Positions 2,063 to 26,279 of a stretch of 64,000 nucleotides of DNA are shown here, in pieces. The position numbers were made by a program, and so were the translations under genes. Numbering within the stretch: position 1 is the stretch's first letter; every line of letters begins with the position of its first letter. The notes beneath the pieces were generated by a model that was given only the letters and a program-made list of their open reading frames with translations, made no database searches and was not told the DNA's origin. The DNA lies in NCBI RefSeq assembly GCF_013167455.1, contig NZ_CP038328.1; one strand, written 5' to 3'. The stretch is from Escherichia coli O157:H7. GTDB lineage: Bacteria; Pseudomonadota; Gammaproteobacteria; Enterobacterales; Enterobacteriaceae.

Positions 2063-2469
2063 TATGGAAACGAAAAATCCCCCTGGAAGCACTGAATGCC
2101 ATGGGTGAAGGAAACATGGTGGGGTTACTGGATATTCGCTTTGAACATATTGGTGATGACGCCCTTGAAGCGACAATGCCAGTAGACTCGCGGACAAAGC
2201 AGCCTTTCGGGTTGCTACATGGAGGTGCATCCGTGGTACTGGCCGAAAGTATCGGTTCCGTTGCCGGTTATTTATGTACCGAAGGTGAGCAAAAAGTGGT
2301 TGGTCTGGAAATCAATGCTAACCACGTCCGCTCGGCACGAGAAGGGCGGGTGCGCGGCGTATGCAAACCGTTGCATCTCGGTTCGCGTCACCAGGTCTGG
2401 CAGATTGAAATCTCCGATGAGAAAGGGCGTTTGTGCTGTTCGTCACGATTGACGACCGCCATTTTGTGA
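2059..2469 (+). CDS. menI: 1,4-dihydroxy-2-naphthoyl-CoA thioesterase (hotdog fold), 136 aa
   Basis: 136-aa ORF; start overlaps ydiJ stop by 4 nt (ATGA); translation matches remembered YdiI/MenI; synteny. Confidence 0.85.
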   Translation: MIWKRKIPLEALNAMGEGNMVGLLDIRFEHIGDDALEATMPVDSRTKQPFGLLHGGASVVLAESIGSVAGYLCTEGEQKVVGLEINANHVRSAREGRVRGVCKPLHLGSRHQVWQIEISDEKGRLCCSSRLTTAIL

Positions 2470-2568
2470 CGTTGTCACCAGAAAAGTGTGACGCATATTG
2501 CTTTTGGTCATTATCTGCACAGTAAACGGTGGTATACTGTGCAGGTCTTGTCTAAAAGCGAGGATGCT

Positions 2569-2757
2569 ATGTCTACTCAACTTGATCCCACCCAGCTGGC
2601 CATTGAATTTTTACGCCGTGACCAGAGCAATCTTTCACCTGCCCAATATCTTAAACGTCTGAAACAACTAGAACTTGAATTTGCTGACCTGCTTACTCTC
2701 TCTTCTGCTGAATTAAAAGAAGAAATCTACTTTGCCTGGCGTCTGGGCGTGCATTGA
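2569..2757 (+). CDS. ydiH: Small uncharacterised protein YdiH (62 aa)
   Basis: ATG at 2569 preceded by aggatg; 62 codons to TGA; 89-aa track ORF is an upstream extension; synteny. Confidence 0.55.
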   Translation: MSTQLDPTQLAIEFLRRDQSNLSPAQYLKRLKQLELEFADLLTLSSAELKEEIYFAWRLGVH

Positions 2758-2982
2758 TCCTGACTTAATGCCGCAAGTTCGCCAAATCGACCTGGATTAA
2801 CCTCCGTCCAGGTTCGATGACCTTCTTAATACTGCTTATCTACCCGCCTGATATTGTTCAAAAATAATACTAATCGCAGTTTGTGTTAAAACGGCGGCTT
2901 AGCTTTATGAGATTATTCTTATCGTCCCTTCAAGAGCTAAGCCACTGAGAGTGCCGGAGATAAGCGCCGGATGGGGTAGAAA

Positions 2983-3020
2983 CCCTTAAGCCTGTGTCGC
3001 ACAGACTTAAGGGTTTTCTT
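2983..3020 (+). terminator. Rho-independent terminator hairpin (possibly 3' end of sRNA RydB)
   Basis: Near-perfect inverted repeat cccttaagcctgtg / cacagacttaaggg followed by ttttcttatttc on + strand, about 225 nt past ydiH stop. Confidence 0.5.
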
Positions 3021-3099
3021 ATTTCTGAACGCTGCACTTTTTTACCTATCTCTTAAATAGTCATTTTCAATACAACTTTTTCTTTTTCATCACAGCCTT

Positions 3100-3305
3100 A
3101 ATGCTCCTTAGATAATAATCATTATCTAACAATGAGATACCTAATTCTTAGCGTGCCTGTTAACCCACACATCAGGGTCTATGCTTATTAAAAGCAGGCA
3201 AAAAGCATGTTTTACGGTAAAGCCCCTGCCTTTGCTGGGTTGAACTGATAATCATTATCACTAACATGCTGTTATACGCTGAAAGCGATGAAGTGAGGTA
3301 AATCG
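3100..3305 (+). promoter_or_regulatory. sufA promoter/operator region with two Fur-box-like motifs
   Basis: gataataatcattatct at 3111-3127 and gataatcattatcactaac at 3247-3265, both resembling Fur consensus GATAATGATAATCATTATC; the second lies about 45-60 nt upstream of sufA ATG. Confidence 0.5.
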
Positions 3306-3674
3306 ATGGACATGCATTCAGGAACCTTTAATCCACAGGATTTCGCCTGGCAAGGCTTAACGCTGACACCCGCAGCCGCTGTCCACATCCGCGAGCTGGT
3401 GGCAAAGCAGCCGGGTATGGTCGGCGTGCGCTTAGGTGTGAAGCAAACGGGCTGCGCGGGCTTTGGCTATGTGCTCGACAGTGTTAGCGAGCCGGACAAA
3501 GACGATCTGCTGTTTGAACACGACGGCGCGAAGCTGTTTGTCCCGCTGCAAGCGATGCCGTTTATTGATGGCACGGAAGTCGATTTCGTTCGTGAAGGAC
3601 TTAATCAGATATTCAAATTTCACAACCCTAAAGCCCAGAATGAATGTGGCTGTGGCGAAAGCTTTGGGGTATAG
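3306..3674 (+). CDS. sufA: Fe-S cluster A-type carrier SufA
   Basis: 122-aa ORF with C-terminal CGCGESF motif; first gene of suf operon. Confidence 0.9.
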
Positions 3675-7172: not shown

Positions 7173-8389
7173 CTTTTTCCGTCGACAAAGTGCGGGCCGA
7201 CTTTCCGGTGCTTTCGCGTGAGGTAAACGGTTTGCCGCTGGCTTATCTCGACAGCGCCGCCAGTGCGCAGAAACCGAGCCAGGTGATTGACGCCGAGGCC
7301 GAGTTTTATCGTCATGGCTACGCGGCGGTGCATCGCGGTATTCATACCTTAAGCGCCCAGGCGACCGAGAAAATGGAGAACGTGCGCAAGCGGGCATCGC
7401 TGTTTATTAATGCCCGTTCGGCGGAAGAGCTGGTGTTCGTCCGCGGCACGACGGAAGGGATCAATCTGGTCGCCAATAGCTGGGGCAACAGCAACGTGCG
7501 GGCGGGCGATAACATCATCATAAGTCAGATGGAGCACCACGCTAACATTGTTCCCTGGCAGATGCTTTGCGCACGCGTTGGCGCAGAGCTGCGTGTGATC
7601 CCGCTCAATCCCGACGGTACGTTGCAACTGGAGACGCTGCCTACGCTGTTTGATGAGAAAACTCGCCTGCTGGCAATTACTCATGTCTCCAACGTGCTTG
7701 GCACAGAAAATCCACTGGCGGAAATGATCACGCTTGCGCACCAGCATGGCGCAAAAGTGCTGGTGGATGGCGCTCAGGCGGTGATGCATCATCCGGTGGA
7801 TGTTCAGGCGCTGGATTGCGATTTTTACGTGTTTTCCGGGCATAAACTGTATGGCCCCACCGGGATTGGCATTCTTTATGTCAAAGAAGCCTTGCTACAG
7901 GAGATGCCGCCGTGGGAAGGGGGCGGTTCTATGATCGCCACCGTCAGCCTGAGTGAAGGCACTACCTGGACCAAAGCACCGTGGCGGTTTGAAGCCGGTA
8001 CACCCAATACCGGGGGCATCATTGGTCTTGGCGCGGCGCTGGAGTATGTTTCGGCGCAGGGGCTTAATAACATAGCCGAGTATGAACAGAATCTGATGCA
8101 TTACGCGCTATCACAGCTGGAATCTGTACCGGATCTCACTCTCTATGGCCCACAAAACAGGCTTGGCGTTATTGCTTTTAATCTCGGTAAACACCACGCC
8201 TATGATGTTGGCAGTTTTCTCGATAATTACGGCATTGCTGTGCGTACCGGACATCACTGCGCTATGCCATTAATGGCCTATTATAACGTCCCTGCTATGT
8301 GTCGGGCGTCGCTGGCCATGTATAACACCCATGAAGAAGTGGATCGTCTGGTGACCGGACTGCAACGTATTCACCGTCTGCTGGGATAA
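7169..8389 (+). CDS. sufS: Cysteine desulfurase SufS (PLP-dependent)
   Basis: 406 aa; 4-nt overlap with sufD; aminotransferase class V motifs (e.g. [12 protein letters not shown]). Confidence 0.92.
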
Positions 8390-8401
8390 CAGGGAGGCAC
8401 T

Positions 8402-8818
8402 ATGGCTTTATTGCCGGATAAAGAAAAGTTGCTGCGTAATTTTTTACGCTGCGCCAACTGGGAAGAGAAATATCTCTACATTATTGAGCTGGGCCAGCGT
8501 CTGCCAGAATTACGCGACGAAGACAGAAGCCCACAAAATAGCATTCAGGGCTGCCAGAGTCAGGTGTGGATTGTCATGCGTCAGAATGCGCAGGGAATTA
8601 TTGAATTGCAGGGCGACAGCGATGCGGCGATTGTGAAAGGGCTTATTGCGGTCGTCTTTATTCTCTACGATCAGATGACGCCGCAGGATGTTGTCAATTT
8701 CGATGTGCGTCCGTGGTTTGAAAAAATGGCACTCACCCAACATCTCACCCCATCTCGTTCACAAGGTCTGGAAGCGATGATTCGCGCAATTCGCGCCAAA
8801 GCCGCTGCACTTAGCTAA
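8402..8818 (+). CDS. sufE: Sulfur acceptor SufE
   Basis: 138 aa; follows sufS. Confidence 0.9.
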
Positions 8819-8966
8819 ACTAAAGGGACAGCTTTCATCCGGTTGGCTCACATTGCCGGATGGTCAATGTTTACACTGACCTGCACAGGAGTGTTTCGGT
8901 TTCAGGTGAACATAAGCGCCATCCGACGTTTCAGCGTGAGTCTCCGGCAAATACAGGAGGTTTACA

Positions 8967-18956: not shown

Positions 18957-20561
18957 TTAATCAAACGAAAGACGCCGACGAGCACGGGATGCAGGCTTTA
19001 CGACCGCCCGAGCCATCGCCTCACCAATTTCTGCACATGCCGTAAGTCCCTGAACGAAAGGCTGGTCGTGCATCAACCAGGGCAACGCGCCGAACGCTAC
19101 GCGCCCACGAATATCTTCGGGTTGCTGTAACGTATAATCTTCACCAACATCAGGGATTTCATCCCCTGTTTTCTGTAATTGTTCGCGTAGTCCAGGGAAA
19201 GGAATATCTTTCACTTTAAGCGGACGCTGCCCGCGGGCATCAATAAAAACGTCAAACGAGTAGCTGTTGTCTTCCGTTTTCAGGACGGTGCGCGACTCGT
19301 TAATTTCCATTTTGTAGTCTTCACCGAGAGCGAGAATATGAATGATTCCCGCTTCACGTAAGGCAAGTAGGCGACGAATAGACTCTGAAGGGATTGCCGC
19401 ATAATTATCGATGAAAACCCGGGCAAGGCCTTTACTGAACCGTTTATGGTCGTGTTCATTCAGATGTGGAACAATTTCCTGTACGGCTTCATGCAGGCGC
19501 AGAATGACATAACGCCAGGGAACAGTATGTTTTTCTCGTTTATTGCGTTCGACTTCCTGGAGATTTTTTTCTGCCCAGTCAAATTGGTCGCGTTGTTTGC
19601 GCTCGGCAAACCAGGCTTGAGCAAAGGAATCGACATTCAGGCTCTCTAAGGCTATGCGTTGACTCCAGTCTGGATCAGCAAACTTGATTTCCTCTACTAT
19701 CAATCTAAATACCCGATCCAAAAGGCCATATTCGCCTTTTTGAATCTCAGCATTTAATGCCTGATCAGTGACGATGTGTAAGGGCTCGTAGGGAATAGGG
19801 CAATAGAAATCGGCTTCGGGTAAAATACCCGTGCGCGACATTAACGTAATATTTAGCTTTTCACTTGCGTTATCGCGGTGAAAAACGACGTGTTGTTTAT
19901 CATCTTCAATGAACGAACCATGCTGAATAGCCACTGCCATTGCCGCATCCAGTCCGCTCAAGGATGTTCCCATAATACCCACGTTACACGCATCGACCTT
20001 TGCTTCCATCAAGCCTGACCACGGGCTTGGAAAATACGTTCGGGTTGCTTCTTCTTCATCAGGCCAGACGTGACCCGTGGCGATCACCGCTAAATCAAAC
20101 GTCTCGCTGGGTAAATCCTGATTTGTAGCGAGCATGACGCCAGCATTTGTAATTTGCAGATCGGTAACCTGGCATGATTCATAAACAGCCACTGCAAATT
20201 TTTGCTTTCGTGCCTGGTCTACTAATCGTAAAAATTGATCGCGGAAATATTCGCCCAGCAGAATTCGCGGTAAAAACTGACGATCGTGCAAGGTTTCTTT
20301 TTTAACGCCATAACGCTGGAGATGACTGGCTTCTTGCTTTTGTAGCCATTCGAGATACGTACAATAAATCGGCGGTATTTCATTACTGGCAATATTTGCC
20401 AGCATCATTTTTGAGTTTTCCTCATCACTGTATGGCATCCCGACACCGGCCTCGTCAGCCTGCTCGAAGATAGAAATAGAAAGTGGAGTTTGTTGCTGTA
20501 GAAGCGAGAATAAGGTGTAGATCCCCGTAGGCCCGGCACCCACAATTGCAATTTTTTTCAT
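18957..20561 (-). CDS. ydhS: FAD/NAD(P)-binding protein YdhS, function unknown
   Basis: 534 aa; N-terminal MKKIAIVGAGPTG dinucleotide-binding motif. Confidence 0.8.
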   Translation of the reverse strand: MKKIAIVGAGPTGIYTLFSLLQQQTPLSISIFEQADEAGVGMPYSDEENSKMMLANIASNEIPPIYCTYLEWLQKQEASHLQRYGVKKETLHDRQFLPRILLGEYFRDQFLRLVDQARKQKFAVAVYESCQVTDLQITNAGVMLATNQDLPSETFDLAVIATGHVWPDEEEATRTYFPSPWSGLMEAKVDACNVGIMGTSLSGLDAAMAVAIQHGSFIEDDKQHVVFHRDNASEKLNITLMSRTGILPEADFYCPIPYEPLHIVTDQALNAEIQKGEYGLLDRVFRLIVEEIKFADPDWSQRIALESLNVDSFAQAWFAERKQRDQFDWAEKNLQEVERNKREKHTVPWRYVILRLHEAVQEIVPHLNEHDHKRFSKGLARVFIDNYAAIPSESIRRLLALREAGIIHILALGEDYKMEINESRTVLKTEDNSYSFDVFIDARGQRPLKVKDIPFPGLREQLQKTGDEIPDVGEDYTLQQPEDIRGRVAFGALPWLMHDQPFVQGLTACAEIGEAMARAVVKPASRARRRLSFD

Positions 20562-20686: not shown

Positions 20687-20992
20687 TCAGGCGAGTTTTG
20701 CCTGATTGATTTGACTCAGTGGCTCATTGACATCGAAAACTTTGGCGACAACTTCCTCAACGCCGAGTTTTTTCAGTTGGGCAGTGTGTTTTTCCAGATA
20801 GGCAAGGGCGCTTTTTTCATCAGTGAAAAGGTAGATCCCACCGGCTTCGTGGTTCTTTTCACTTTCTGTCCATACCTTCCACAGAAAACCAGGTTCCTGA
20901 TTAATCGACTCTGCAAGTGGTTTAAGCTGCTCAGCCATTGCGTCGCCAAATGGGCCATTAAAAGCAAAATGAAGTTGTAACAAAGTTGCCAT
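20687..20992 (-). CDS. ydhR: Small uncharacterised protein YdhR (101 aa)
   Basis: 101-aa ORF; synteny. Confidence 0.7.
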
Positions 20993-21099
20993 AGCGATTC
21001 TCCTTCTGATAACGCATACGAAGACAGTGTAAATCTTTTAACGTATTGGATACAGAGAAGAAGCAGAGGGAAAAAGGAGAAGACCAGATTAACAAAATC

Positions 21100-21176
21100 T
21101 GGTGCGTCCGAGTGGACTCGAACCACCGACCCCCACCATGTCAAGGTGGTGCTCTAACCAACTGAGCTACGGACGC
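21100..21176 (-). tRNA. valV: tRNA-Val (GAC)
   Basis: Reverse complement reads GCGTCCGTAGCTCAGTTGGTTAGAGCACCACCTTGACATGGTGGGGGTCGGTGGTTCGAGTCCACTCGGACGCACCA; anticodon GAC; encoded CCA. Confidence 0.9.
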
Positions 21177-21180
21177 AGGA

Positions 21181-21257
21181 TGGTGCGTTCAATTGGACTC
21201 GAACCAACGACCCCCACCATGTCAAGGTGGTGCTCTAACCAACTGAGCTATGAACGC
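21181..21257 (-). tRNA. valW: tRNA-Val (GAC), second tandem copy
   Basis: Reverse complement reads GCGTTCATAGCTCAGTTGGTTAGAGCACCACCTTGACATGGTGGGGGTCGTTGGTTCGAGTCCAATTGAACGCACCA; 4-nt spacer from first copy. Confidence 0.9.
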
Positions 21258-21564
21258 AACGTTGTAGGTGACAACGGGGACGAATATTAGCGGCAGAGTG
21301 GGAAGGTGGCAAGAGGCAAAACGTAATTTTCTGCGCTATTTCGACCGTTTGCAGAGCTTTTAAGCAAATTGGCTATATTTTGTTGATTTGCAAGGGCGAT
21401 TTTTATTCAGGATCGCATTTACATCTGATACAACCCAATAATTCGTGTATCAGAGTTTAAACAGAGTTGTTTGCCACCATCTCAAATCTGTCGTGGATAA
21501 ATCCTCCGTAGCCTTTACACTTAGGTAGCAATAAAGGCACACAGATGCAGCAAAGGAATAAATC

Positions 21565-22821
21565 ATGGGATCTGATGCGAAAAACTTGATGAGCGACGGG
21601 AATGTGCAAATTGTTAAGACCGGCGAGGTCATTGGCGCGACGCAACTTACTGAAGGCGAGTTGATTGTTGAAGCTGGCGGAAGAGCCGAAAATACCGTGG
21701 TCACGGGGGCTGGCTGGTTGAAAGTGGCAACCGGTGGGATCGCCAAATGCACACAGTACGGTAACAATGGCACGCTATCGGTCAGCGACGGTGCCATTGC
21801 CACAGATATTGTTCAGTCCGAGGGAGGCGCAATTAGTCTCTCTACGCTCGCTACGGTTAATGGCCGCCATCCCGAAGGTGAATTCAGCGTTGATCAGGGT
21901 TATGCCTGCGGTTTGTTGCTGGAAAATGGCGGTAACCTGCGTGTACTGGAAGGACATCGCGCGGAAAAAATCATTCTCGATCAAGAGGGCGGCCTGTTGG
22001 TTAATGGGACAACCTCAGCGGTCGTGGTAGATGAAGGTGGTGAATTGTTGGTGTATCCAGGTGGGGAAGCCAGCAATTGTGAGATTAATCAGGGCGGCGT
22101 TTTTATGCTGGCGGGGAAAGCCAATGATACGTTGCTTGCTGATGGCACCATGAATAATCTCGGTGGTGAAGACTCTGACACTATTGTTGAGAATGGAGCC
22201 ATCTATCGTCTGGGGACGGATGGTCTTCAGCTCTACAGTTCCGGTAAGACGCAAAACCTGTCCGTTAATGTGGGTGGTCGGGCTGAAGTGCATGCCGGTA
22301 CGCTGGAAAATGCGGTAATACAAGGTGGAACAGTGATCCTGTTGTCACCCACCAGCGCGGACGAAAATTTTGTCGTAGAGGAAGATCGCGCACCGGTTGA
22401 ACTGACCGGGAGTGTTGCATTACTGGACGGCGCTTCAATGATTATTGGCTATGGCGCAGATCTGCAACAATCAACGATTACTGTACAGCAGGGCGGTGTA
22501 TTGATTCTCGACGGCAGTACGGTAAAAGGTGACAGTGTCACTTTCAGTATTGGTAACATCAATCTGAATGGCGGAAAACTGTGGCTGATCACTGGTGCGG
22601 CAACGCATGTGCAGCTGAAAGTGAAACGCCTGCGCGGAGAGGGAGCGATTTGCCTGCAAACCAGTGCGAAAGAAATTTCACCTGACTTCATCAATGTGAA
22701 AGGGGAAGTTAACGGGGATATACGCGTTCAGATAACAGATGCCAGTCGGCAAACTCTGTGTAACGCACTGAAACTACAGCCAGACGAAGACGGGATTGGC
22801 GCAACGCTCCAGCCTGCGTAA
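21565..22821 (+). CDS. ydhQ: Autotransporter-passenger-like (beta-helical adhesin-like) protein YdhQ, no beta-barrel domain
   Basis: 418 aa; degenerate Gly-rich repeats (..GGxxxxxV..NGG..) typical of AIDA/pertactin-type passengers. Confidence 0.75.
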   Translation: MGSDAKNLMSDGNVQIVKTGEVIGATQLTEGELIVEAGGRAENTVVTGAGWLKVATGGIAKCTQYGNNGTLSVSDGAIATDIVQSEGGAISLSTLATVNGRHPEGEFSVDQGYACGLLLENGGNLRVLEGHRAEKIILDQEGGLLVNGTTSAVVVDEGGELLVYPGGEASNCEINQGGVFMLAGKANDTLLADGTMNNLGGEDSDTIVENGAIYRLGTDGLQLYSSGKTQNLSVNVGGRAEVHAGTLENAVIQGGTVILLSPTSADENFVVEEDRAPVELTGSVALLDGASMIIGYGADLQQSTITVQQGGVLILDGSTVKGDSVTFSIGNINLNGGKLWLITGAATHVQLKVKRLRGEGAICLQTSAKEISPDFINVKGEVNGDIRVQITDASRQTLCNALKLQPDEDGIGATLQPA

Positions 22822-22827
22822 AAACAC

Positions 22828-22860
22828 AGGCGCACCCCGTGAAGGTTGCGCCTTGTCTTT
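22828..22860. terminator. Hairpin between convergent ydhQ and mdtK
   Basis: aggcgcacc ccgtgaa ggttgcgcct followed by tgtcttt. Confidence 0.4.
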
Positions 22861-22861
22861 A

Positions 22862-24256
<1,395 letters not shown>

Positions 24257-24449: not shown

Positions 24450-25091
24450 ATGTTTACGGGGATTGTACAGGGCACCGCAAAACTGGTGTCGATTGACGAG
24501 AAACCAAATTTTCGCACACATGTGGTGGAGTTACCCGACCACATGCTGGACGGTCTGGAAACCGGTGCCTCCGTGGCGCATAACGGTTGCTGCCTGACCG
24601 TGACGGAAATTAACGGCAACCATGTCAGTTTTGACCTGATGAAAGAAACGTTGCGCATTACCAATCTTGGCGATTTAAAAGTGGGGGATTGGGTAAACGT
24701 TGAGCGTGCGGCGAAATTCAGTGATGAAATTGGCGGACACTTAATGTCAGGTCATATTATGACCACCGCTGAAGTGGCGAAAATATTAACCTCGGAAAAT
24801 AATCGCCAGATCTGGTTTAAAGTCCAGGATAGTCAGTTGATGAAATATATCCTGTACAAAGGATTTATTGGCATCGACGGTATTAGCCTGACCGTCGGCG
24901 AAGTCACGCCAACGCGTTTTTGCGTCCATTTAATTCCGGAAACTCTGGAACGCACGACTCTTGGGAAGAAAAAACTTGGCGCACGCGTCAACATTGAAAT
25001 CGATCCACAAACTCAGGCAGTGGTAGATACGGTAGAACGTGTGCTGGCGGCACGAGAAAATGCCATGAATCAATCAGGTACAGAAGCCTGA
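24450..25091 (+). CDS. ribC: Riboflavin synthase (alpha subunit)
   Basis: 213 aa; [16 protein letters not shown]-terminus and internal duplication typical of riboflavin synthase. Confidence 0.9.
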
Positions 25092-25097
25092 TCTGAA

Positions 25098-25120
25098 ATC
25101 GCCCCCGGAGAGGGGGCGAT
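25098..25120. terminator. Bidirectional terminator between ribC and cfa
   Basis: atcgcccccggagagggggcgat: perfect 9-bp stem. Confidence 0.65.
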
Positions 25121-25130
25121 AGAATAGCCT

Positions 25131-26279
25131 TTAGCGAGCGACTCGAAGGCCGTTTTCAACACCGCGTGAGAACACCACCTGCCAGAGCTGAATATCACGG
25201 GCGCGGAAAGCACCTGCGCAGGCATTCAGATAATAGGTAAACATCCGTTTAAAGCGTTCACTGTAGTTATCCGCAATTTCTGGCCATGCGGCGACGAATC
25301 GTTCATACCACGCCATCAACGTAGTATCGTAATCAGCACCGAAGTTATGCCAGTCTTCCATCACAAAGTGGGGTTCGCTGGACTGAGCAATCTGGCGTAC
25401 AGAGGGCAGGCAACCGTTCGGGAAAATATATTTATTAATCCAGGGATCAACATTCAGATCGGTTTTTTTCGAACCGATAGTATGGAGCAGGAATATGCCT
25501 TCCGGTTTCAAATTACGATCCACCACCGTAAAATAGGTATCGTAATTTTTCGGTCCGACGTGCTCGAACATCCCCACAGAAACAATACGATCAAACTGGT
25601 CGTTCAGGTCACGATAATCTTGCAGCAAAATGGTGACATCCAGGCCTTCACAGCGTTCCTGAGCCATTTTTTGCTGTTCGGCAGAAATGGTGACGCCCAC
25701 CACGCTTACGTCATAATTAGATGCCATGTAGTGTGCCAGTCCGCCCCAGCCGCAGCCAATATCCAGTACGCGCATCCCAGGTTTTAACTGCAATTTTTCA
25801 CAAATCATTTTGAGCTTCGCCTGCTGGGCAGATTCCAGATTATCGGCATCTTTCCAGTAAGCGCAGGAATATTGCATGAAGGGATCAAGCATGCGGCTGA
25901 ACAAGTCATTACCCAAATCGTAATGCTCTTTGCCGACTATCCAGGCACGTTTTTTACTCTGCAGATTGAAGAGACGGGCGCCGGCAATACGCAGCGTGTC
26001 TTTGAAATGATGGGGGAGTTGGTTCTCGAGACCTGCGCGTAAGACTTTGCTAAAAAACATATCCAGTCGGTCACATTCCCACCAGCCATCCATATAACTT
26101 TCGCCTAACCCCAAAGAGCCTTCTTGCAGAACGCGTTTAAAAAAATCGGGGTTTTTCACACGAATATCCGCCGGGGCAGAACCGTTAATGGCTATACCGG
26201 CACGGCTAAGTAATTCGTTGGCGATACGGTACCAGTTGTCATCCGGTACACTGACTTCTTCTATACACGATGAACTCAT
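25131..26279 (-). CDS. cfa: Cyclopropane-fatty-acyl-phospholipid synthase
   Basis: 382 aa; SAM-binding motif VLDIGCGWGG. Confidence 0.92.
   Translation of the reverse strand: MSSSCIEEVSVPDDNWYRIANELLSRAGIAINGSAPADIRVKNPDFFKRVLQEGSLGLGESYMDGWWECDRLDMFFSKVLRAGLENQLPHHFKDTLRIAGARLFNLQSKKRAWIVGKEHYDLGNDLFSRMLDPFMQYSCAYWKDADNLESAQQAKLKMICEKLQLKPGMRVLDIGCGWGGLAHYMASNYDVSVVGVTISAEQQKMAQERCEGLDVTILLQDYRDLNDQFDRIVSVGMFEHVGPKNYDTYFTVVDRNLKPEGIFLLHTIGSKKTDLNVDPWINKYIFPNGCLPSVRQIAQSSEPHFVMEDWHNFGADYDTTLMAWYERFVAAWPEIADNYSERFKRMFTYYLNACAGAFRARDIQLWQVVFSRGVENGLRVAR

Follow-up and report, generated by a model that had tools for sequence, protein, structure and literature searches.

The window analysed here, a 64,000-nucleotide stretch of Escherichia coli O157:H7 (contig NZ_CP038328.1), carries the gene ydhQ between a tandem pair of tRNA-Val genes, already noted in the initial annotation, and the convergent gene mdtK. 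The locus comprises the following features:

21100..21257 (21100-21176 and 21181-21257), minus strand: valV and valW, tandem tRNA-Val(GAC) genes (ARAGORN, Rfam tRNA and RefSeq annotation)
21250..21332, minus strand: valV-valW promoter region (TTGCCA-17-TAATAT), with a promoter-like site at 21312-21284
21553..21561, plus strand: Shine-Dalgarno AAGGA (21553-21557, 7 nt before the ATG) and in-frame TAA (21559-21561)
21565..22821, plus strand: ydhQ coding sequence, 418 codons plus TAA (open reading frame list and PRK09945 equivalog)
22824..22863, no strand assigned: GC-rich hairpin with a U-tract after it, in the gap separating the convergent genes ydhQ and mdtK, with a terminator-like site at 22841-22825 on the minus strand

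The product of 21565-22821 is sequence-identical to UniProt YDHQ_ECO57, and the NCBIfam equivalog PRK09945 covers it completely (positions 1-418 of 418; 940.5 bits against a cutoff of 830), which places it in the YdhQ family and bears out its initial identification as a 418-residue YdhQ protein. Both the gene and its missing leader had been documented before this analysis. The initial annotation further described degenerate repeats like those of AIDA/pertactin passengers, and profile searches uphold this relationship: the Pfam AIDA profile PF16168 matches in three stretches (E=6.6e-28), Pertactin PF03212 matches in part (E=3.7e-6), and NCBIfam matches include Ag43 and AIDA-I (both below their cutoffs) as well as the strand-loop-strand repeat TIGR04415. 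These sequence matches establish the passenger-type repeats as genuine and well in excess of chance. They are degenerate and visible at the protein level only; no tandem repeats were found in the DNA. An AF2 model (pLDDT 89, pTM 0.86) is all beta and forms a beta-helix, and its best PDB matches in Foldseek are Ag43 (7KOH, 7KO9, 4KH3, 7KOB) and TibA (4Q1Q), with a probability of 1.0. As modelled, YdhQ folds into a right-handed beta-helix like that of AIDA/Ag43-type passengers. With a pI of 4.4 and a net charge of about -26 it is very acidic, which would be unusual for a direct RNA binder, and the GC content of the gene (0.516) is host-like.

Passengers of Ag43, TibA and AIDA-I share with YdhQ the right-handed beta-helix, the AIDA strand-loop-strand repeats and the hairpin insertions, and phmmer comparisons with passengers of this type gave E values of 1e-12 to 6e-26. 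Identity to these proteins is only 20-28%, and YdhQ differs from them in having no signal peptide, ESPR, alpha-helical linker or 12-stranded barrel. The best full-length colinear relative is P0092, the yejO-locus autotransporter of E. coli encoded beside ccmFGH-narP: residues 2-392 of YdhQ correspond to its residues 72-486 at 28% identity, and both proteins contain the autochaperone-start motif L.G.G....T......D.[IL].V.G...G......TD. Unlike YdhQ, P0092 has a signal peptide and is about 70 residues longer at the N terminus; its Pertactin domain (414-538) is complete, and a PF03797 barrel starts at residue 585. Among 1.84 billion representatives, non-fragment relatives outside the YdhQ cluster were all at most 38% identical and nearly all long and autotransporter-like; in those submitted to Pfam, the domains found were ESPR, AIDA, Pertactin and Autotransporter. 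Descent of YdhQ from an AIDA/Ag43-type autotransporter passenger is thus supported by sequence comparison and by the predicted fold.

The C-terminal end of the homology lies within a domain that full-length relatives complete:

22552..22773, plus strand: truncated autochaperone (Pertactin) domain, codons 330-403; the reading frame stops about 15 codons further on

Residues 330-403, the only part of YdhQ matched by PF03212, correspond to profile positions 2-78 of 121, some two thirds of the autochaperone domain. Full-length relatives match positions 1-120, and the ydhQ reading frame terminates inside the domain. In alignments, full autotransporters go on past this end to complete the autochaperone domain, after which come linker and barrel, and relatives run 280-400 residues beyond the point homologous to the YdhQ C terminus. 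The absence of a C-terminal barrel, proposed in the initial annotation, stood up to the Pfam search, in which the PF03797 translocator found no match in YdhQ even at E<=1, and the ydhQ stop is separated from the stop codon of mdtK by only 40 bp of non-coding DNA. The proposed absence of a signal peptide held equally well. The N terminus has no hydrophobic core, the maximal Kyte-Doolittle 9-residue average over the first 60 residues being 1.21, compared with 2.3-2.8 in relatives that bear signal peptides; Pfam gave no ESPR match, a TAT motif is absent, and SignalP 6.0 returned 'no signal peptide' (PMC13101318). An N-terminal extension is excluded by the in-frame TAA two codons before the ATG, and the stretch 21553..21561 with its Shine-Dalgarno and TAA is kept in all nine lineages aligned. 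With 124 autotransporter homologues as tblastn queries, remnants of lost domains in the spacer 21258-21570 and the downstream 60 bp amounted only to short chance matches (best E=0.001 against a tiny database, before correction for 124 queries). Likewise, no outer-membrane or secretion gene, and hence no canonical secretion partner, was found within 12 kb on either side of ydhQ, where the neighbours are ydhS, ydhR, tRNA-Val, mdtK, ribE, cfa, punC and others. Compared with a type Va system, YdhQ has the beta-helical passenger and lacks the signal peptide, a complete autochaperone (PF03212 or PF18883) and the linker with its 12-stranded barrel; the adjacent transporter or partner gene of two-partner secretion is missing as well. 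Without barrel and leader YdhQ cannot be an autotransporter, and the lack of a signal peptide, ESPR and linker together with the cut autochaperone sets it outside type Va. Searches with PADLOC models gave no family for YdhQ at E<=0.01, hence no anti-phage defence match, and T7 infection is unchanged by ydhQ deletion (PMC6962156).

Comparison with outgroups delimits the DNA that is peculiar to Escherichia at this position:

21333..22861, no strand assigned: Escherichia-specific segment of about 1.53 kb, made up of ydhQ, a 232-bp leader region and a 40-bp tail

This segment, which every sampled Escherichia lineage has, replaces about 76 bp of the mdtK-valV spacer of Salmonella and Enterobacter, in which mdtK and the tRNA-Val pair are 151 bp apart without ydhQ. 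Alignment to the outgroup spacer is confined to 21250-21332 of the window and to the 3' end of mdtK. Since the outgroup loci have no ydhQ, the segment of roughly 1.5 kb represents an old, Escherichia-specific insertion that holds only this gene, and most likely it entered between mdtK and the valVW promoter in the Escherichia ancestor. The ancestral edge is marked by the valVW promoter region, which shares 84-87% identity with the outgroup spacers and varies little within Escherichia. At the other end, the hairpin at 22824..22863 (RNA fold of -16 kcal/mol, z = -2.8) is probably a bidirectional intrinsic terminator. Neither flanking direct or inverted repeats nor an integrase were found around the insert. 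The initial annotation had pointed to the tRNA-Val pair as a common site of gene gain and loss. This is borne out by Salmonella, where SPI-2 occupies the same neighbourhood and begins, with ssaU and onward, 158 bp 3' of the same tRNA-Val pair. The analogy does not extend to ydhQ, which is located 5' of the tRNAs, on their promoter side, whereas islands usually integrate at the 3' side, and which differs from SPI-2 in being a single gene of host-like GC without integrase or flanking repeats. Nor did comparison of the locus, which was to uncover a longer ancestral gene, yield one in any genome examined: E. albertii, E. marmotae, E. whittamii and further clades have 418 codons, and the outgroups are without the gene.

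Within the genus the reading frame is remarkably uniform. Nearly all complete E. coli genomes (5419 of 5426) contain the ydhQ region, and an intact gene of 418 codons with identical start and end occurs in eight of eight Escherichia species-level lineages. A ninth lineage is 71% identical and has 419 codons, owing to a one-codon in-frame insertion that is the only indel seen between lineages. Orthologues of 418 residues with the same termini and synteny are found in Shigella, E. ruysiae, E. marmotae, E. whittamii, E. albertii and further clades; E. fergusonii gave no match in the genome-collection scan, which used two peptide patterns only and does not prove absence. At dS of 0.65-1.1 (about 3 to the most distant lineage), dN/dS of ydhQ is 0.10-0.12, compared with 0.06-0.09 for the neighbouring ydhR and 0.01-0.03 for mdtK, ribC and cfa. 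Constraint is strongest in one part of the gene:

21745..21984, plus strand: most constrained segment, codons 61-140, an AIDA unit with the invariant motif VNGRHPEGEFSVD.GYA.GLLLENGGNLRVL.GHRAEK

Here regional dN/dS falls to 0.02-0.04, and the same codons encode the YdhQ region that best matches Ag43, at about its residues 200-320. Positively selected sites in ydhQ have also been reported from 92 wastewater E. coli genomes.

These data bear directly on the suggestion in the initial annotation that ydhQ is a decayed autotransporter remnant. Such a slowly decaying, non-functional fragment, an expressed pseudogene, would account for the loss of signal peptide, autochaperone end and barrel, for the lack of a reported phenotype of ydhQ deletion, which serves as a neutral control or integration site, and for rare E. 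coli strains with a disrupted or shorter gene (H30; singleton clusters of 370-402 aa). Over divergence of this extent, however, a neutral reading frame of 1.26 kb would gain stops and frameshifts, which largely refutes decay; start, stop and ribosome-binding site are conserved instead, and the pseudogene hallmarks of frameshifted or interrupted orthologues and dN/dS moving toward 1 are not seen. Recent horizontal copies, which might mimic such uniformity, are countered by the conserved synteny and by a gene-wide dS similar to that of the neighbours. The remnant hypothesis is contradicted too by the near-universal presence of the gene in E. coli and by detection of its product, YdhQ having been quantified in whole-cell proteomics (PMC6561319), and we regard it as very improbable. 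Real decay is exemplified by P0069, an E. coli autotransporter pseudogene fragment that resembles YdhQ in its 422 aa, its three AIDA stretches and its match to Pertactin profile positions 1-87. Its cluster mixes fragments whose lengths range from 150 to 1165 aa and whose tails are frameshifted, in contrast to the single length fixed for YdhQ across the genus. Other conserved "passenger-only" families were considered as well, and the short matches were either fragments due to contig ends or frameshifts (P0069, P0105, P0122) or repeat proteins of an unrelated kind. Maintenance of the 418 codons under purifying selection implies that the YdhQ protein itself is selected, and most likely ydhQ encodes a working protein inside the cell, not a decaying remnant.

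Upstream of the gene, a motif scan against TTGAAA-N13/14-CCCCATNT returned a candidate heat-shock promoter:

21456..21482, plus strand: sigma32-type promoter candidate TTTAAA-N13-CACCATCT, 83 nt upstream of the ATG

This is the sole match in the window at up to two mismatches, and with a chance expectation of 1.97 per window it is the position, not the match itself, that argues for a sigma32 candidate. Its -10-like box is partly conserved across species. A transcript from this site would begin with a 5' UTR of about 75 nt with several GGA (CsrA-type) motifs, and CsrA motifs and predicted binding in the ydhQ 5' UTR have been described (PMC5389547). One might suppose from this predicted binding, from a FlhDC SELEX peak within the ydhQ-valV spacer and from the position of ydhQ between a tRNA promoter and a convergent gene that the reading frame is kept for its DNA or RNA, be it as a spacer or insulator that keeps the strong valVW promoter apart from the mdtK terminator or as the source of a regulatory RNA. 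Such constraint would not spare synonymous sites, yet dS of ydhQ is like that of neighbouring genes throughout and dN is about 10-fold lower; the spacer of 151 bp suffices in Salmonella and Enterobacter; and Rfam at a permissive threshold gave nothing in ydhQ or its leader, its only matches being to the tRNAs and, across the tRNA/ydhR edge, to an antisense family. We give this explanation next to no credence.

The genes ycjX, ycjF, yhdN and yciS belong to the sigma32 regulon. Expression of ydhQ shifts with these four under misfolding stress (PMC2868799). In PMC2996942, a secondary citation for the sigma32 mapping, ydhQ appears in Table 2 among sigma32 sites reported by ChIP-chip and other methods, with a modest ChIP signal of 1.4, and three of the four genes are found in the sigma32 table as well. 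For the protein, YdhQ was among 17 unannotated proteins in the E. coli OOPS RNA-interactome (bioRxiv 10.1101/2023.07.03.547468) and co-purified with EF-Tu (PMC2672614).

EF-Tu is a frequent co-purification contaminant. An alternative site of action for YdhQ would be outside the cytoplasm, where it could still serve as an adhesin or biofilm factor after getting there non-classically, for instance with a barrel provided in trans, in vesicles or through lysis. Homology to self-associating adhesins would agree with such a role, as would the second-hand statement, in PMC9110714 and there attributed to Roux et al. 2005, that early adhesion requires ydhQ. Vesicle proteomes list COG3468 members including YdhQ, and surface-display activity has been reported for YdhQ fusions with an added signal peptide (PMC13101318). 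Those assays used agarase activity on plates and a membrane-permeable fluorogen, readouts that do not show outer-membrane insertion of a barrel-less protein, and without an added leader the fusions fold and are cytosolic, with inactive agarase (PMC13101318). The missing signal peptide, TAT motif, ESPR, barrel and partner gene speak against export, the proposed sigma32 control and the association with EF-Tu and RNA point to the cytoplasm, and the cysteine content of YdhQ (1.2%) is raised relative to secreted passengers (median 0.49% among 102 autotransporter homologues). We therefore consider an extracellular role unlikely. The other possibility raised by the initial annotation, that of a beta-helical protein localised elsewhere, agrees with the lack of leader and barrel, the cytosolic fusions, the sigma32 lists and the EF-Tu co-purification.

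Overall, the explanation we favour, and hold to be rather probable, is that YdhQ is an AIDA/Ag43-type passenger retained as a heat-shock-regulated cytoplasmic beta-helix. The stand-alone beta-helix would descend from a type Va autotransporter passenger of which all secretion parts are gone; a segment of about 1.5 kb would have entered the mdtK-valVW interval in the Escherichia ancestor, and its reading frame would have been held at 418 codons since. Published data suggest that at least part of ydhQ transcription starts at a sigma32 (heat-shock) promoter and that its product is made and stays in the cytoplasm. There YdhQ might conceivably act as a soluble binding scaffold through the conserved, hairpin-bearing AIDA unit at residues 61-140, its partners may perhaps be found in the translation or RNA machinery, and it would possibly not function as a surface adhesin. 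More tentatively, the passenger may have been domesticated intracellularly: having lost leader and barrel and been recruited to the sigma32 regulon, it would now work in the cytoplasm through its invariant hairpin unit (residues 61-140), perhaps with the translation or RNA machinery or misfolded proteins as targets.

YdhQ is a core Escherichia y-gene product that is usually labelled an adhesin or autotransporter, while its gene is deleted as "neutral" and the protein promoted as a display anchor. The absence of barrel and leader, the purifying selection and the sigma32 lists together suggest that functional studies should turn to the cytoplasm and to stress responses, and call for caution in using the locus as a neutral site and in taking display data at face value. 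If domestication holds true, YdhQ was misclassified when it was recently described as a 'leaderless autotransporter' display scaffold, and a fold familiar elsewhere only from secreted modules for virulence or adhesion would here have changed both its compartment and its function. Beyond this, ydhQ offers a clean example of a secretion-system module kept after its secretability was lost.

The ydhQ gene encodes a protein that matches UniProt YDHQ_ECO57 exactly and the NCBIfam equivalog PRK09945 at 940 bits (cutoff 830). Its ATG is preceded, at a distance of 7 nt, by a good Shine-Dalgarno sequence (AAGGA), and the 40-bp gap between its stop codon and mdtK contains a terminator-like hairpin (-16 kcal/mol, z = -2.8). 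Beyond mdtK follow ribE/ribC and cfa, and the other flank carries ydhS, ydhR and a tRNA-Val(GAC) pair. The window comes from E. coli: over 2 kb it is 100% identical to the RefSeq strain CDC#03-98 and near-identical to strain F3398. Defence-system models gave no match to YdhQ.

Features of the ydhQ locus (window coordinates unless stated)
21100-21257, minus strand: two tRNA-Val(GAC) genes; the corresponding region is at 7523-8902 of the Salmonella locus (L012) and 7528-8334 of the Enterobacter locus (L014)
about 21333-22861: Escherichia-specific segment containing ydhQ, its 232-bp AT-rich leader region, the terminator-like hairpin and nothing else
21456-21482, plus strand: candidate sigma32-type promoter, TTTAAA-N13-CACCATCT, 83 nt 5' of the ydhQ ATG
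21565-22821, plus strand: ydhQ, open reading frame with a 418-aa product
22862-24235: mdtK, convergent to ydhQ

Two further observations concern the surroundings. Rfam RF02194 (HPnc0260, 'bacterial antisense RNA') matches 20976-21138 on the plus strand (106.9 bits against a gathering score of 59), antisense to the ydhR 5' end and the first tRNA-Val, and may just reflect tRNA-antisense sequence within the Rfam seed alignment. The ATP-dependent helicase gene lhr, from about 33974 onward, is annotated as frameshifted, i.e., a pseudogene, in CDC#03-98 (24975-26001 of that strain's locus, L015).

The initial annotation described a protein with AIDA/pertactin passenger-type repeats and with neither a C-terminal beta-barrel nor a signal peptide, and all three points hold. 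Pfam AIDA (PF16168) matches in three stretches (E=6.6e-28) and Pertactin/autochaperone matches partially, residues 330-403 covering profile positions 2-78 of 121; Ag43, AIDA-I and the TIGR04415 strand-loop-strand repeat are sub-threshold NCBIfam matches. As the Pfam scan at E<=1 returned nothing further, YdhQ has no Autotransporter beta-domain and no ESPR. The repeats are confined to the protein level, Tandem Repeats Finder detecting no tandem repeats in the DNA. The N terminus (MGSDAKNLMSDGNVQIVKTGE...) is without a hydrophobic core, its top Kyte-Doolittle 9-residue average being 1.21 compared with 2.3-2.8 in leader-bearing relatives, and it cannot be longer because an in-frame TAA lies two codons 5' of the ATG. 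SignalP 6.0 predicts no signal peptide (PMC13101318).

The relationship to autotransporters was examined by searching 1.84 billion representative proteins exhaustively with HMMER. The search recovered a single YdhQ cluster, and all other non-fragment relatives were at most 38% identical and nearly all about 700 to 6000 aa long; those scanned for domains carry ESPR, AIDA, Pertactin/AC_1 and Autotransporter. The best full-length-aligning relative, P0092, is an autotransporter of the yejO locus (its gene adjoins ccmFGH-narP), whose residues 72-486 align with YdhQ 2-392 at 28% identity, autochaperone-opening motif included. Unlike YdhQ, it runs on through the remainder of Pertactin (to 538) and a barrel from residue 585. 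In the genome that carries it (3001-5316 of L016, the yejO locus), P0092 appears truncated inside the barrel (PF03797 positions 1-192 of 255). When multiple sequences are aligned, the tail of YdhQ (...LKLQPDEDGIGATLQPA) still matches the "LQIIQTGGGxAxFxLA" segment found in full autotransporters and ends there; past this point, relatives have a further 280-400 residues. AlphaFold2 confidently predicts an all-beta helix (pLDDT 89, pTM 0.86; pLDDT <50 only at residues 1-11 and 264-274), and Foldseek places this model with Ag43 (7KOH, 7KO9, 4KH3, 7KOB) and TibA (4Q1Q) in the PDB at probability 1.0, in agreement with a PDB sequence search. Sequence relatives and predicted fold thus identify YdhQ as an AIDA/Ag43-type passenger. 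Missing from it are approximately the first 70 residues (leader and first rungs), the final third of the autochaperone domain, and both linker and barrel. Three of the features that define a type Va autotransporter are lacking.

The initial annotation had raised a decayed autotransporter remnant as one possibility. Of 5426 complete E. coli genomes, however, 5419 contain the ydhQ region, and Shigella, E. ruysiae, E. marmotae, E. whittamii, E. albertii and unnamed Escherichia clades have orthologues that are likewise exactly 418 aa long, with a common start (MGS[DE][AE]KNL) and C-terminal GIGATL motif. The order ydhR, tRNA-Val pair, ydhQ, mdtK, ribE, cfa is kept wherever flanks were at hand. In a more distant lineage (71% identical), which shares the upstream spacer, one extra codon inserted in frame brings the length to 419 aa. 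Between species, Nei-Gojobori dN/dS is 0.10-0.12 at dS 0.65-1.1; in comparisons with the 71% lineage, for which dS has reached saturation, it is 0.06-0.11. The corresponding values are 0.06-0.09 for the neighbour ydhR and 0.01-0.03 for mdtK, ribC and cfa. Presence, fixed length and dN/dS together essentially refute a decaying remnant. The gene also differs from real autotransporter pseudogenes, which in the E. coli cluster of P0069 (a 422-aa member) are fragments scattered in length between 150 and 1165 aa, their tails frameshifted. Most constrained are residues 61-140 (dN/dS 0.02-0.04), with the long invariant block VNGRHPEGEFSVD.GYA.GLLLENGGNLRVL.GHRAEK. GC content is host-like (0.516). Pointing the other way, positively selected sites within E. 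coli are reported in PMC9110714. About 6 of the 5425 matching genomes have no one location that covers 80% of the 2-kb query; in one, strain AR_0013 (NZ_CP032204.1), ydhQ is interrupted or partly deleted, since only 58% of the query aligns in one piece.

In Salmonella and Enterobacter, a spacer of 151 bp separates mdtK from the same tRNA-Val pair, and there is no ydhQ. Only 21250-21332 (83 bp, the valVW promoter) and the mdtK end align between these outgroups and E. coli, which makes about 21333-22861 Escherichia-specific. Neither flanking repeats around this segment nor coding remnants of a leader or barrel within it were found, and a species-genome scan with just two peptide motifs found ydhQ only in Escherichia, where the lack of a hit in E. 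fergusonii need not mean that the gene is absent. The tRNA-Val pair is indeed the hotspot of gain and loss proposed earlier: SPI-2 (ssaU and onward) starts 158 bp 3' of it in Salmonella, and Enterobacter carries different cargo (HSP20, GlgS, T6SS fragments). However, tRNA islands typically integrate at the tRNA 3' side, and ydhQ lies on the promoter side. It may derive from a whole autotransporter inserted and then trimmed, or from a fragment truncated before arrival. Gene content on the 3' side varies within Escherichia too: the interval from ydhT to ydhR is without ydhS in E. albertii (2251-3432 of its locus, L002, against window 18957-20561).

The candidate promoter is the sole match in the window to TTGAAA-N13-CCCCATNT at <=2 mismatches; about 2 are expected by chance, so that only its position is informative. 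Its -10-like box is partially conserved across species. Not statistically significant alone, this putative element is consistent with published target lists: ydhQ is among sigma32 sites from ChIP-chip and other methods (signal 1.4; PMC2996942). Under periplasmic misfolding stress, ydhQ changes together with ycjX, ycjF, yhdN and yciS (PMC2868799). It is also a predicted CsrA target (PMC5389547), and an in-vitro FlhDC SELEX peak falls in the ydhQ-valV spacer (PMC9962212).

Unless a leader is added, YdhQ fusions fold and are located in the cytosol, and "surface display" was reported only with an exogenous signal peptide (PMC13101318, 2026). That study labels the 418-aa protein a "leaderless autotransporter" and 'anchor scaffold' without remarking on the missing barrel; as YdhQ has no beta-barrel domain, how the reported display would work is unexplained. 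Possibly, YdhQ is an adhesin reaching the surface by an unconventional route, as the surface activity reported for these fusions, the COG3468 group including YdhQ in vesicle proteomes and an early-adhesion requirement given as a secondary citation in PMC9110714 might indicate, but this reading comes without any mechanism, and no secretion partner gene lies within 12 kb of ydhQ. YdhQ co-purifies with EF-Tu (PMC2672614), is among 17 unannotated proteins of an OOPS RNA-interactome (bioRxiv 10.1101/2023.07.03.547468) and is quantified in whole-cell proteomes, dropping 5.5-fold with vanillin (PMC6561319). Direct RNA binding would be unusual because the protein is strongly acidic (pI 4.4). Its five cysteines (1.2%; median 0.49% in 102 autotransporter homologues) fit, though weakly, a protein that is no longer constrained by having to pass the outer membrane in an unfolded state. 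Cells survive deletion of ydhQ, which is used as a neutral control and as a site for integration.

Earlier records already contain the gene, the product name "AIDA repeat-containing protein" and the absence of a leader, so ydhQ is known, although its evolutionary status is under-appreciated. In the best-supported account, YdhQ is an autotransporter passenger whose secretion determinants were all lost before the sampled Escherichia lineages split. Purifying selection has preserved it since then, as a soluble beta-helix protein that is most likely cytoplasmic and would be under sigma32 control. Our working guess is that it is a binding scaffold, acting via the invariant 61-140 unit.
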